Shown here: piece after piece, positions 20,563-23,500 of the stretch
Layout: every line of letters begins with the position of its first letter
How positions within the stretch are numbered: position 1 is the stretch's first letter
NCBI RefSeq assembly: GCF_016127575.1
Contig: NZ_CP066019.1
Location: 1,650,001-1,682,000 of the forward strand
Direction: 5' to 3'
Length of the DNA: 32,000 bases
DNA from: Cupriavidus necator
GTDB lineage: Bacteria; Pseudomonadota; Gammaproteobacteria; Burkholderiales; Burkholderiaceae
Program-made: the position numbers and the translations under genes
Notes under the pieces: generated by a model
Seen by the model: only the letters and a program-made list of their open reading frames with translations
Told to the model about the DNA's origin: nothing
The model's database searches: none

Positions 20563-23500
20563 GTGCGGATCTGCCAGATCGACCTGACCGGAACGCCCGA
20601 TGCCGATGAACACGCGCTCCAGCGCGTGGCGGCACTGGGCTTCGACCACGTACTGATCGGCGGCTGGCCGCACCTGCCCGGCGAAGACGCTTTCGCGGCT
20701 TGCGCCCGGCACGGGCTGGCCCCGCTGCTCGACATCTCACTGGACCGCTATGCGGTCGACCCCGCCGATGGCACCGGGCCAGCACCCGACCCTGGCTGGA
20801 TCGACAGTGCGCTCCCAGCCTTCGCCCCACACGAGACCGACAGCCACATCCCCGGCGCGCGCCTGCGCTGGCATGACCAGCAAGCGGCCGAGGCGCTGGT
20901 GCAGTGGTGGGCGGCCCGGCTGCGCCAGGCCTGGGTGGCAGGCGCGGCGGGCTTCTGCTGCCGTGCGCCGGCACGCGTGCACGGCAGGCATTGGGCCGCG
21001 GTGACCGGCACGCTGCGCAGCGATGCTGTGCCGGCACAGGCGCGCGGTGCGCCATGCTTCCTGGCATGGACGCCCGGGCTGACGCCGGCGCAACTGGACG
21101 ATCTCGCGCCCGCCGGCTTCGACGGCGCATTCTGCTCGCTGCCGTGGTGGGATTTTCGCAGCCCCTGGCTGACCGAGGAAATCGCGCGGCTGCGCCCCTT
21201 CGGCCGGGTGCTGGCCGCCCCAGCGCTGACGCCGGCAAGCCATGACGCACTCAGCGCGCGGCGTGCGCTGTGGACCGCCGCGGCGATCGGCGACGGCATC
21301 CTGGTGCCGGCCGGCTTCGAGACCGGCGGCGCGCTGGCACGCGACCCGCTGGCCACGGATGGTGCCCCGCATCAGGGCGCGCCGTACGACATCACCCACG
21401 AGCTGCTGGAAACCAATACCTGGCTGGCTGCGCGCGATCCGGCGCCGGCACTGGCCGTGCGCCTGCTGAGCGGACCCGACGCGCCGCTGACGGTGCTGGC
21501 ACGGCTGCCTGTGCCGGACGGCGCCTGCCCCGCTCCCGACGCCGCCGGCACCCGTAGCGACCCTGAGGTACCGGACGGTGCCCCCGCCCTGGCAGTGGTG
21601 CTCAATCCAGACCCCGCGGCGCCCGGCACGCTGGGCGCCGACCGCGTGCTGAGCGCGCTGCCGCACGCCAGCGCGCACCTGGAATCGTCACTGGGCGGCC
21701 CGGGCGGGACGGTCGATGCCAACCACCGGCTCGATGCGCTGGCCAGCATCACGCTGGCACCGGCCGATATCCGCCTCTACGAAGTGCCCCCGGTGCCCCT
21801 GACGCGGCCCGGCATGCCGGCAGCCGACGCGCGCGCGCCGCACGGCCATGAAACGCTGGCCGCCACCGGCCTGGGCAGCGTGGTGGCGGCAATGGAGGCC
21901 CCGCGGATCGCCATCGAGCACGTCGAGCCCGCCTGCAACGAAGGCCGCTTCGCGGTGCGGCGCGTGGTGGGCGAGCGCGTGACCGTCAGTGCCGATATCT
22001 GGATGGATGGCCACGACAAGCTTGCCGCCATGGTGTTGTGGCGTGCGCCGGGCGAGACTGGCTGGCACCAGGCGCCGATGCAGCCCGTGATCAACGACCG
22101 CTGGGAAGGCAGTTTCCCGCTGGTGGCGCTGGGCCGGCATGAATTCACGGTCGAGGCCTGGCGCGACACCTTCGCCAGCTGGCTCGACGAGATCGGCAAG
22201 AAGCGCGCGGCCGGCCTCAACGTGGCGCTGGAGATCGAGGAAGGCGCGCGGCTGGTGGCCGATGCGCTGCTGCAGCCTGCCAGGAACGGGAAGCAGGGCA
22301 ATGGCGGGAAGAACACCCGGACGGCAACCGCGGACACCGAGCTCTCAGCCATCGTCGACGAACTGATCACCGCTGCCGGCGATGACGCTCGCCGGCAGGA
22401 GATCCTGCTGTCGCCACGCACCGAGGCCGCGATGCAGGCAGTGATGGCAACCCCGGCGGGTCGCCCGTTTGCCTCGCGTCATCCGGTGGCCATGCCGGTC
22501 GAGGCCGATCGCCTGGCCGCGCGCTACGCCAGCTGGTACGAGCTGTTCCCGCGCTCGCAAAGCAACGACGAGACCCGCCACGGCACCTTCGACGATGTCA
22601 TCGCCAGGCTGCCCGCGATTCGCGCGATGGGCTTCGACGTGCTCTACTTCACGCCGATCCACCCGATCGGCCGCACCCACCGCAAGGGCCGCAACAACAG
22701 CCTGCGCGCCGAGCCGGGCGATCACGGCAGCCCCTACGCCATCGGCGGCAAGGAAGGCGGCCACGATGCGCTGCATCCCGAGCTCGGCACCTTTGAAGAC
22801 TTCCGCCGCCTGCGCGACGCGGCGGCCAGACATGGCCTGGAGCTGGCACTGGACTTCGCCATCCAGTGCTCGCCCGACCATCCGTGGCTGCGCGACCACC
22901 CGGAATGGTTCGCACACCGCCCGGACGGTTCGCTGCGCTATGCCGAGAACCCGCCCAAGAAGTACGAGGACATCGTCAACGTCGATTTCTACGCCGCAGC
23001 GCCCGCGGGCGCCGCGCTATGGCAGGCCCTGCGCGACGTGGTGATGTTCTGGGCCGACCAGGGCGTGCGCATCTTCCGCGTCGACAACCCGCACACCAAG
23101 CCGCTGCCGTTCTGGGAGTGGATGATCGCCGACGTGCGCGCGCGCCACCCCGACACCATCTTCCTGGCCGAGGCCTTCACCCGGCCCAAGATGATGGCGC
23201 GGCTGGCCAAGCTGGGCTTCAGCCAGTCATACACGTACTTCACCTGGCGCAATGCCAAGTGGGAGCTGACCGAATACCTGACCGAGCTGACGCAAAGCCC
23301 GCTGCGCGACTTCTTCCGGCCTCACTTCTTCGTCAACACCCCTGACATCAACCCCTACTTCCTGCACCAGGGCGGGCGCCCCGCGTTCCTGATCCGCGCG
23401 GCGCTGGCCACGCTGCTGTCGGGGCTGTGGGGCATGTACAGCGGCTTCGAGTTGTGCGAGAGCGCGCCCTTTGTGCTGAACGGCAAGGTGCGCGAGGAAT

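Follow-up and report, generated by a model that had tools for sequence, protein, structure and literature searches.

What is the long protein segment that precedes the canonical maltosyltransferase GlgE in Cupriavidus necator, where did it come from, and what does it do? In the pathway from trehalose to glucan, GlgE is the key polymerase; it works from maltose-1-phosphate and is a validated drug target in mycobacteria. We analysed a 32,000-nucleotide stretch of the C. necator genome (the window; assembly GCF_016127575.1, contig NZ_CP066019.1, positions 1,650,001 to 1,682,000 of the forward strand), in which positions are counted from the first letter and features lie on the forward (+) strand unless marked otherwise. 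In this window of 65–75% GC, a long open reading frame (ORF) at 20398–23979 (+) holds a canonical GlgE, and its product is a protein of 1138 residues in which the canonical enzyme makes up the C-terminal 693. A Pfam scan of the ORF placed GlgE_dom_N_S, Alpha-amylase and GLGE_C all at ORF residue 502 or beyond, and Pfam and NCBIfam scans of residues 1–500 returned no match; about 40% of the long GlgE polypeptide is without a domain model or an assigned role. We find that residues 1–445, hereafter the N-domain and its linker, are a real, conserved glycoside hydrolase family 13 (GH13) module homologous to the GlgE catalytic domain. This module is very probably a dead GH13 barrel that arose when a neighbouring amylase-like gene fused to glgE, and it appears to have been kept as a pseudoenzyme domain; to this explanation as a whole, identity, origin and role together, we assign a probability of about 0.6.

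The likeness between the two halves of the protein becomes significant only with profiles and structure. An initial annotation of this DNA had matched the extension to the downstream catalytic domain by eye, segment by segment. Direct BLASTP of residues 1–500 against the rest of the protein recovered one of those segments as its top pair with a best E of 2, which is not significant, so the by-eye alignment alone is not beyond chance and the case rests on profile and structure comparison. A hidden Markov model (HMM) of eight N-domain homologues (alignment A2) matched the window's own GlgE catalytic domain with an independent E of 5e-12 and matched solved GlgE structures at E ~7e-14, from the catalytic domain into domain C, with other GH13 structures reaching only ~1e-4; with filters off, the same model scored 40 bits against the GlgE core and no more than 3 bits against TreS, GlgB or GlgX of the window. 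Alignment of a profile of 130 N-domains to one of 96 GlgE cores with hhalign gave 98.4% and E 7.7e-15 over 321 columns and extended into GlgE domain C, where VVLNPDP stands opposite VVVNLDP. All five segment pairs of the initial annotation recur in the HMM and hhalign alignments; its proposed self-alignment thus fails as a direct search and succeeds as a profile comparison, and its proposed scan for GH13 and GlgE models is silent with Pfam and NCBIfam and positive with the homologue profile.

Structure prediction leads to the same fold. An AlphaFold2 (AF2) model of the N-domain from a 15-sequence alignment (mean predicted local distance difference test score, pLDDT, 77; predicted template-modelling score, pTM, 0.79) contains eight beta/alpha units (residues 1–291) followed by a beta-sandwich (residues 298–408) as assigned by DSSP. 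The barrel strands are β1 2–6, β2 29–32, β3 53–58, β4 130–133, β5 165–169, β6 188–190, β7 215–218 and β8 245–249, and a domain-B remnant at residues 59–105 is poorly predicted. Foldseek against the Protein Data Bank (PDB) returned 396 matches at E <= 0.001; the ten best are GlgE (E ~1e-14, TM-score 0.62), other GH13 enzymes come next, and the 50 best listed are all GH13. The barrel and all-beta domain C that define the GH13 fold are therefore both present. On the DNA, the dead (beta/alpha)8 barrel (residues 1–260) occupies 20563..21342, as supported by AF2/DSSP, Foldseek, profile matches and substitution ratios; a loop, helix α8 and the domain-C-like beta-sandwich (residues 261–410; AF2 strands 298–408, profile alignment) follow at 21343..21792, and a low-complexity inter-domain linker (residues 411–445) at 21793..21897. 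Canonical GlgE then begins with APRIAIEHVEP at 21898, residue 446, where the annotation had put it: domains N and S (residues 446–650) span 21898..22512 (PF11896 at ORF residues 502–705, E 8e-54), and catalytic domain A/B with domain C (residues 651–1138; Pfam Alpha-amylase and GLGE_C, full-length AF2 model) spans 22513..23976, with the stop codon at 23977–23979.

The barrel of the N-domain has lost its catalytic centre. Both the HMM and the hhalign alignment place Arg134 (codon 20962–20964; GFCCRAP against IFRVDNP) opposite the nucleophile D841 (23083–23085) and Trp169 (codon 21067–21069; FLAWTPG against FLAEAFT) opposite the acid/base E870 (23170–23172), and hhalign places Ala225 (codon 21235–21237), within APALTPAS, opposite the third Asp, D928 (23344–23346). 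These replacements agree to the codon with those first read from the letters, including a third Asp that falls on an Ala/Leu-rich stretch, and profile alignment confirms the view of a catalytically dead domain. The region I Asn-His pair has become Asp61-Arg62, the region II Arg has become Cys132, the region IV His-Asp pair has become Pro224-Ala225, and the β2-loop Tyr segment is deleted. All seven residues of the GH13 −1 subsite and catalytic centre are lost, and the positions of the Asp/Glu/Asp triad and of the region I His, region II Arg and region IV His of an active enzyme are held by R134, W169, A225, R62, C132 and P224; the triad of the GlgE core of the same protein (D841, E870, D928) is intact. 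Tabulated over 163 near-complete N-domains, the nucleophile column contains Arg in 63, Leu in 42, Asp in 23 and Glu in 9, and the acid/base column contains Trp in 130; among those 130, T170 is kept in 96%, P171 in 91% and G172 in 99%, making AWTPG a derived, near-invariant motif of the dead form. Because the triad is absent, maltose-1-phosphate-dependent maltosyl transfer by the N-domain is, judged from these alignments, very unlikely. Homologous to active enzymes, stripped of their catalytic residues and held under purifying selection, the N-domain has the features of a pseudoenzyme.

The pattern of conservation suggests what such a domain could be kept for. Residues conserved in at least 85% of the dead group are G127 and G130 at β4; A168, W169, T170, P171 and G172 at β5; F186, D187, F190, S192, W195, W196, D197 and R199 at β6 and its loop; and G245, P249, G251 and E253 at β8. 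They make up the motifs AWTPG after β5, F.S..WWD.R after β6 and P.GFE at β8, of which WWD and GFE are common to intact enzymes, and by alignment and predicted fold they gather where the barrel strands end C-terminally, on what was once the substrate face. Because conservation sits at this face, we propose a ligand-binding role in which the dead module, kept as a pseudoenzyme domain, would act as a flexibly tethered module for alpha-glucan binding or acceptor docking, keeping GlgE on the polymer, or alternatively would sense a sugar or sugar-phosphate ligand. We put forward this glucan-binding or regulatory role tentatively, as the leading candidate for a part of the explanation that is less secure than the rest. 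In a full-length AF2 model from a 26-sequence alignment the individual domains are well predicted, the overall pTM is 0.61 and no inter-domain packing is confident; the linker falls short of pLDDT 50 in both AF2 models and shows a ratio of nonsynonymous to synonymous substitution rates (dN/dS) of 0.6–0.9 at larger distances, and 37–49% identity to more distant Cupriavidus. These values are consistent with a disordered linker in near-neutral evolution and an N-domain flexibly tethered to GlgE.

The main rival to a ligand-binding role, unlikely in our estimate, is a protein–protein scaffold in which the N-domain would serve GlgE oligomerisation or dock TreS-Mak or GlgB instead of binding carbohydrate. 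Catalytically dead copies are seen only fused to GlgE, as a scaffold would lead one to expect; fusions of adjacent operon genes often reflect an earlier physical complex, and non-catalytic GH13 subunits are known as partners or stabilisers of active ones, as with plant ISA2 and ISA1. However, the disordered and fast-evolving linker and the lack of a confident fixed interface in the full-length model (pTM 0.61) speak against a scaffold, and the conserved residues appear, from sequence, to be aromatic-rich barrel-top motifs typical of sugar sites, with no obvious flat surface among them. A ligand-binding pseudoenzyme domain accounts better for where conservation falls.

The origin of the N-domain is illuminated by relatives that have kept their active sites. 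About 15 representative clusters of the family carry the full GH13 signature (DxxxNH, GFRCD, AE(T/N)LG and PESHD) and match Pfam Alpha-amylase and hDGE_amylase. These intact forms are mostly stand-alone proteins of about 430 residues, and fewer are fused to GlgE. A profile of the intact forms (A4) detected at least 3753 clusters at E <= 1e-20; among 120 matches listed, the full signature was present in 114 of 114 newly returned proteins, with a median length of 432 residues. We found no reported function for this stand-alone family, whose members are named "alpha-amylase family glycosyl hydrolase" in sequence databases and, in many JGI entries, "starch synthase (maltosyl-transferring)", a label that is probably an over-annotation. 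With hhalign, dead and intact N-domains align at 100% and E 5e-63 over 357 columns, and intact N-domains align to the GlgE core at 99.9% and E 3.9e-31. In a neighbor-joining (NJ) tree of 56 sequences and 399 columns, built from simple distances with PDB sequences rebuilt from printed alignments and two GH13_48 sequences, dead and intact N-domains form one clade in 97/100 bootstrap replicates with the dead forms nested among the intact ones. By profile and by tree, then, the N-domain belongs to this stand-alone amylase-like GH13 family.

Gene order points to the route by which the domain reached GlgE. In Rubrobacter taiwanensis (locus L084, 8001–11254) an intact amylase-like gene of 424 residues is followed after 24 bp by glgE (651 residues), treS-mak, glgB and glgX, and in Rhodospirillaceae BRH_c57 (locus L085, 7001–10379) these genes follow in the same order, with 4 bp separating the amylase-like gene from glgE. 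The window operon repeats this order with the first two genes fused. The position directly 5′ of glgE is thus held by a separate gene in two genomes and by the fused domain in 75 of 75 loci whose contig reaches the GlgE core, among 80 loci fetched. We propose that an amylase-like gene first stood upstream of glgE at the head of an amylase-like/glgE/treS-mak/glgB/glgX operon; that the stop codon separating these two neighbours, the amylase-like gene and glgE, was then lost, giving a read-through fusion; that the acid/base Glu was replaced by Trp in a branch with Cupriavidus, Ralstonia, Alcaligenaceae, Xanthobacteraceae and Rhizobium; and that the other catalytic residues would have been lost stepwise until all were gone in Cupriavidus. 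Arg132 and Asp/Glu134 are still kept in some Xanthobacteraceae, Bordetella and R. solanacearum forms. Intact fused forms also exist, namely P0059 and P0062 (~1110 residues) and the fragments P0089, P0190, P0217 and P0071, with named examples from Alphaproteobacteria and Geminicoccaceae metagenome-assembled genomes (MAGs); by their sequence, these fused proteins may be bifunctional two-barrel enzymes. Another intact member, P0141 (783 residues), carries a different N-terminal extension of about 350 residues that gave no match in a Pfam scan.

The initial annotation had explained the extension otherwise, as an internal tandem duplication in which glgE copied its own GH13_3 barrel and the copy then lost its catalytic residues. 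Homology to the GlgE barrel and catalytic death both stand; descent as a copy of GlgE does not fit, and we consider it improbable. A duplication would account for the dead-domain profile finding no better match than GlgE among solved structures (E 7e-14, with other GH13 at 1e-4), for the ten GlgE hits that head the Foldseek search, for the preference of the profile for its own core over TreS, GlgB and GlgX (40 bits against 3 or fewer), and for a weak NJ signal that makes the N-domain clade sister to GlgE in 54/100 replicates. However, actinobacterial and proteobacterial GlgE catalytic domains are monophyletic in 100/100 replicates with the N-domain outside, and the dead domain groups with GlgE in 0/100; by hhalign E-value the intact family is nearer to the dead domain than GlgE is by about 48 orders of magnitude (5e-63 against 7.7e-15), and members of that family stand as genes of their own immediately 5′ of glgE. 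The features specific to GlgE, its N and S domains, its long β2-α2 insertion and the PPKKY(E/Q)DI motif, all lie in the C-terminal part of the window protein: the N-domain begins directly at β1, shows a gap of 38–41 residues opposite the ~40-residue insertion and has no PPKKY equivalent. Intact members instead share a short β2 loop, PGFSGSLYAVKDY, and a WGDLAELDY motif with GH13_48, where the latter corresponds to W(S)D(V)xD(L/F)DY. The description of the N-domain as GH13_3-like is accordingly one that we abandon. Separate clades for the N-domain and GlgE, together with an adjacent stand-alone intact gene, make fusion followed by decay the most economical history, and on these sequence comparisons it is strongly supported over duplication.

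Could the dead barrel still be an enzyme, with a rebuilt active site or another substrate such as a phosphorylated sugar, making the protein bifunctional? We judge this highly improbable. Arg62 and Arg134, both new to the pocket, do suggest a phosphorylated substrate, conservation is concentrated on the former active-site face, the derived and near-invariant Trp169, Thr170, Pro171 and Gly172 argue for a specific new role, and the branches that keep Arg132 with Asp/Glu134 show the signatures RD.W and RE.W. Yet the window protein and all its close Cupriavidus relatives have replaced the nucleophile, the acid/base, the transition-state Asp, both His and the Arg; position 134 varies among R, L, S, M, N and H within the dead group, unlike a catalytic residue; and we know of no GH13 enzyme that works without the Asp/Glu pair. 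A non-catalytic role for the fused domain is the better account.

The N-domain is under purifying selection as a translated protein, to judge from coding-sequence comparison with nine Cupriavidus and Ralstonia orthologues. Against these, dN/dS is 0.18–0.32 for the barrel and 0.17–0.44 for the beta-sandwich part, alongside 0.17–0.29 for the GlgE N and S domains and 0.10–0.22 for the GlgE catalytic part. The frame runs uninterrupted into the core in all 75 core-reaching loci. An exhaustive profile search returned 300 representative clusters at E <= 1e-30, many of them 1040–1210 residues long and matched again, more weakly, over their own catalytic domain, and a genome pattern scan found a relative of the N-domain in at least 202 species genomes, the closest being Cupriavidus sp. 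UYPR2.512 with 93% identity over the N-domain. The internal Met444 (ATG 21892–21894), the candidate start for a shorter protein, has no ribosome-binding site (RBS) and is Leu, Ile or Thr in relatives. These selection ratios, the continuity of the frame and the unconserved Met444 identify the extension as a coding domain under selection, and although it lacks a Pfam or NCBIfam match over residues 1–445, is Ala/Pro/Gly-rich in a setting where long spurious ORFs are common (70–75% GC), and has Met444 just before APRIAIE, the idea that it is an untranslated or decaying relic, or an annotation artefact, with translation starting near 21898, is barely credible beside a conserved GTG and GGGAGGA and a confidently predicted fold.

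Several points nevertheless weigh against the explanation that we favour. For the origin, some stand-alone intact genes lie away from glgE: the Nitrosococcus copy is isolated, a Desulfobacteraceae MAG has one beside malQ, and another copy is near sugar ABC transporter, PGM-like and GH15 genes. With the dead-domain profile GlgE reaches 55 bits and GH13_48 only 25, and the intact profile ranks them the other way, with GH13_48 structures 3DHU at 116 bits and 4GKL at 111 bits above GlgE at 85 bits; given these opposite rankings, a deep common origin of the N-domain clade with GlgE is possible, and a very old duplication in the common ancestor of the two clades may lie behind it. The NJ tree rests on simple distances over ~400 columns with 19–28% identity between clades, and its support is split over the branching order among the three clades, with the N-domain clade joining GlgE in 54/100 replicates, GH13_48 joining GlgE in 24/100, and the N-domain clade joining GH13_48, itself a 99/100 clade, in 5/100 with only the two rebuilt GH13_48 sequences. 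Inside the GlgE (GH13_3) clade the N-domain does not fall. For the role, the low full-length pTM may reflect the shallow 26-sequence alignment and not flexibility; sugar binding would need other subsites or a new site, since none of the canonical −1 subsite residues is left; and the role of the dead domain is something we infer from sequence only. A dead GH13 module derived from a neighbouring amylase-like gene is the firmest part of the explanation, and its function the least firm.

Long GlgE is the GlgE of the sampled Cupriavidus species and also of Alcaligenaceae, Xanthobacteraceae and others; Ralstonia solanacearum (a 1201-residue "glgE") and Rhizobium leguminosarum (1074 residues) both have the dead signature, and a plasmid and megaplasmid collection holds 293 matching records. 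On an R. solanacearum megaplasmid (locus L090, 5041–10372), the classical glycogen synthase gene glgA stands directly upstream of long glgE, placing both glucan polymerases in one cluster. Protein searches by word index, queried with the dead domain, found nothing longer than fragments of 720 residues, and the full-length proteins came from the exhaustive search of representatives. Many database entries are truncated or have frameshifted tails (P0002, P0013, P0014 and P0017; loci L088 and L089), which come from high-GC and long-read metagenome assemblies, and the resulting "hypothetical protein" calls of 140–360 residues in Cupriavidus hide the long architecture from word-based searches. Most short dead-domain proteins (400–520 residues) stop within the GlgE N domain or run out in sequence that looks frameshifted; considered as stand-alone pseudo-proteins, they were set aside as contig-end or frameshift fragments, and intact short forms end naturally.

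The start of the 1138-residue protein is the GTG at 20563–20565, preceded at a distance of 4 nt by the RBS GGGAGGA at 20552–20558 (together 20552..20565). Cupriavidus and Ralstonia orthologues keep both elements, and in many relatives the frame ahead of this GTG is broken by stops (the N-terminus of homologue P0001 is MRICQL); these stops rule out a start at ATG 20398, and an internal start at Met444 was rejected as well. The initial annotation had chosen both this GTG and the junction at 21898, and both boundaries are upheld. At 20463–20478 (+), 100 nt upstream of the glgE start, lies a sigma-54-type −24/−12 motif, TGGCACGCACTTCGCA, with GG-N10-GC spacing; the same or a near-identical motif occurs 50–300 nt (mostly 50–125 nt) upstream of the orthologue in 36 of 75 loci, nearly all Cupriavidus, which suggests RpoN-dependent expression of the glgE operon. 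A promoter scan found no sigma-70-like site near this predicted motif, and Rfam, tRNA and sigma-70/terminator scans yielded nothing relevant.

Downstream, Pfam identifies a treS-mak (pep2) fusion gene at 23989..27360 (+), starting 10 nt past the glgE stop, then a glgB-like ORF at 27288–29627 (+) and a glgX-like ORF at 29330–31858 (+), with starts as mechanically listed. The last two begin 73 and 298 nt inside the genes before them, and because of these overlaps their true starts are probably farther downstream. Upstream, a major facilitator superfamily transporter (13567–14925, +), an erythromycin-esterase-family protein (15375–17129, +), a BON-domain protein (17464–18030, −) and a 403-residue flavin mononucleotide (FMN)-reductase-like protein (18075–19286, −) appear unrelated to glucan metabolism. 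Just upstream of glgE, a 166-residue ORF (19849–20349, −) has a hydrophobic look and no Pfam match.

Pseudoenzyme domains and dead GH13 relatives are already known as a kind; this extension on GlgE is, as far as we found, newly described. In the searchable literature, which does not take in the GlgE-pathway gene survey of Chandra et al. (2011), we found no description of it, and the remark in the initial annotation that it knew of no described function for such an extension holds for the domain models and papers searched. According to a 2024 Chem Rev review article, the GlgEs studied biochemically come only from actinomycetes, Pseudomonas aeruginosa PAO1 and Estrella lausannensis, and the regulation of the pathway, like the separation of synthesis from breakdown, is largely unknown (PMC11046441). 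The extension can now be assigned to a very large amylase-like family, uncharacterised and associated with glgE, of which it is a dead member, and it offers a testable lead as a possible regulatory or glucan-docking module on GlgE. Annotators should neither label the N-terminal half a domain of unknown function nor leave it blank, and should not name the stand-alone relatives maltosyltransferases.

These relatives may themselves be, on the evidence of gene order and sequence, an unrecognised component of the GlgE pathway. A bolder extension, which we regard as speculative and somewhat less likely even than a scaffold, is that the amylase-like gene of glgE operons encodes a fifth pathway enzyme that was silenced on fusion, its dead barrel being reused as a ligand sensor or acceptor holder that controls GlgE. 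The fifth enzyme could be an amylase that acts from chain ends, releases maltose and feeds glucan back to the TreS/Mak node; after fusion its hydrolysis would have been counter-productive, hence its silencing, and the dead barrel may control GlgE processivity, chain length or allostery, with maltose, maltose-1-phosphate and trehalose as possible allosteric ligands. Actinobacteria regulate GlgE through phosphorylation by PknB; were this scheme true, proteobacteria would do so by means of a built-in pseudoenzyme.

Several known systems resemble the N-domain in part. Over its C-terminal 693 residues the window protein is a standard GlgE (PDB 3ZSS, 4U33, 5CGM), and the N-domain shares with GlgE, its best structural match, the barrel and domain C fold, an HPEWF-type motif after β3 in its less degenerate relatives, a common FR..P..P..W frame in region II and a GF...[FY]..W[WR][DN] motif after β6. 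It differs from GlgE in having no N and S domains of its own, no β2-α2 insertion, no catalytic triad and no PPKKY(E/Q)DI, a motif that in work on complexes of Streptomyces coelicolor GlgE reportedly contacts the phosphate of maltose-1-phosphate, and it lies outside the GlgE clade. Its true family is the stand-alone one of ~430 residues, found in Rubrobacter taiwanensis, Nitrosococcus oceani and N. watsonii and Sulfuricella and often the first gene of a glgE operon, which has the same barrel and C-domain length and the shared motifs GFD, F.S, WWD and P.GFE; those proteins keep D..NH, GFRCD, AE and HD and match Pfam, whereas the window N-domain keeps none of these and has no Pfam match. The closest solved relatives of the intact members are maltogenic and alpha-amylases of GH13_48 (Thermotoga neapolitana AmyB, 4GKL; Lactobacillus plantarum, 3DHU), which resemble them in size (~420–450 residues), in a short domain B and in the HPEWF..D.dG, W.D...(L/F)DY and GFRCD motifs, and differ in forming a clade of their own (99/100) that joins the N-domain family in 5/100 replicates and scores only ~25 bits with the dead-domain profile. 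GH13_48 and GH13_49 were defined in a paper that mentions neither GlgE nor these proteobacterial sequences (PMC11239784). Dead GH13 barrels known from eukaryotes are separate polypeptides, whereas the dead barrel of the window is fused in cis, through a probably flexible linker, to a maltosyltransferase of a different GH13 clade. What the eukaryotic barrels exemplify is the loss of catalytic residues in a GH13 fold that selection keeps for a non-catalytic role beside an active partner.

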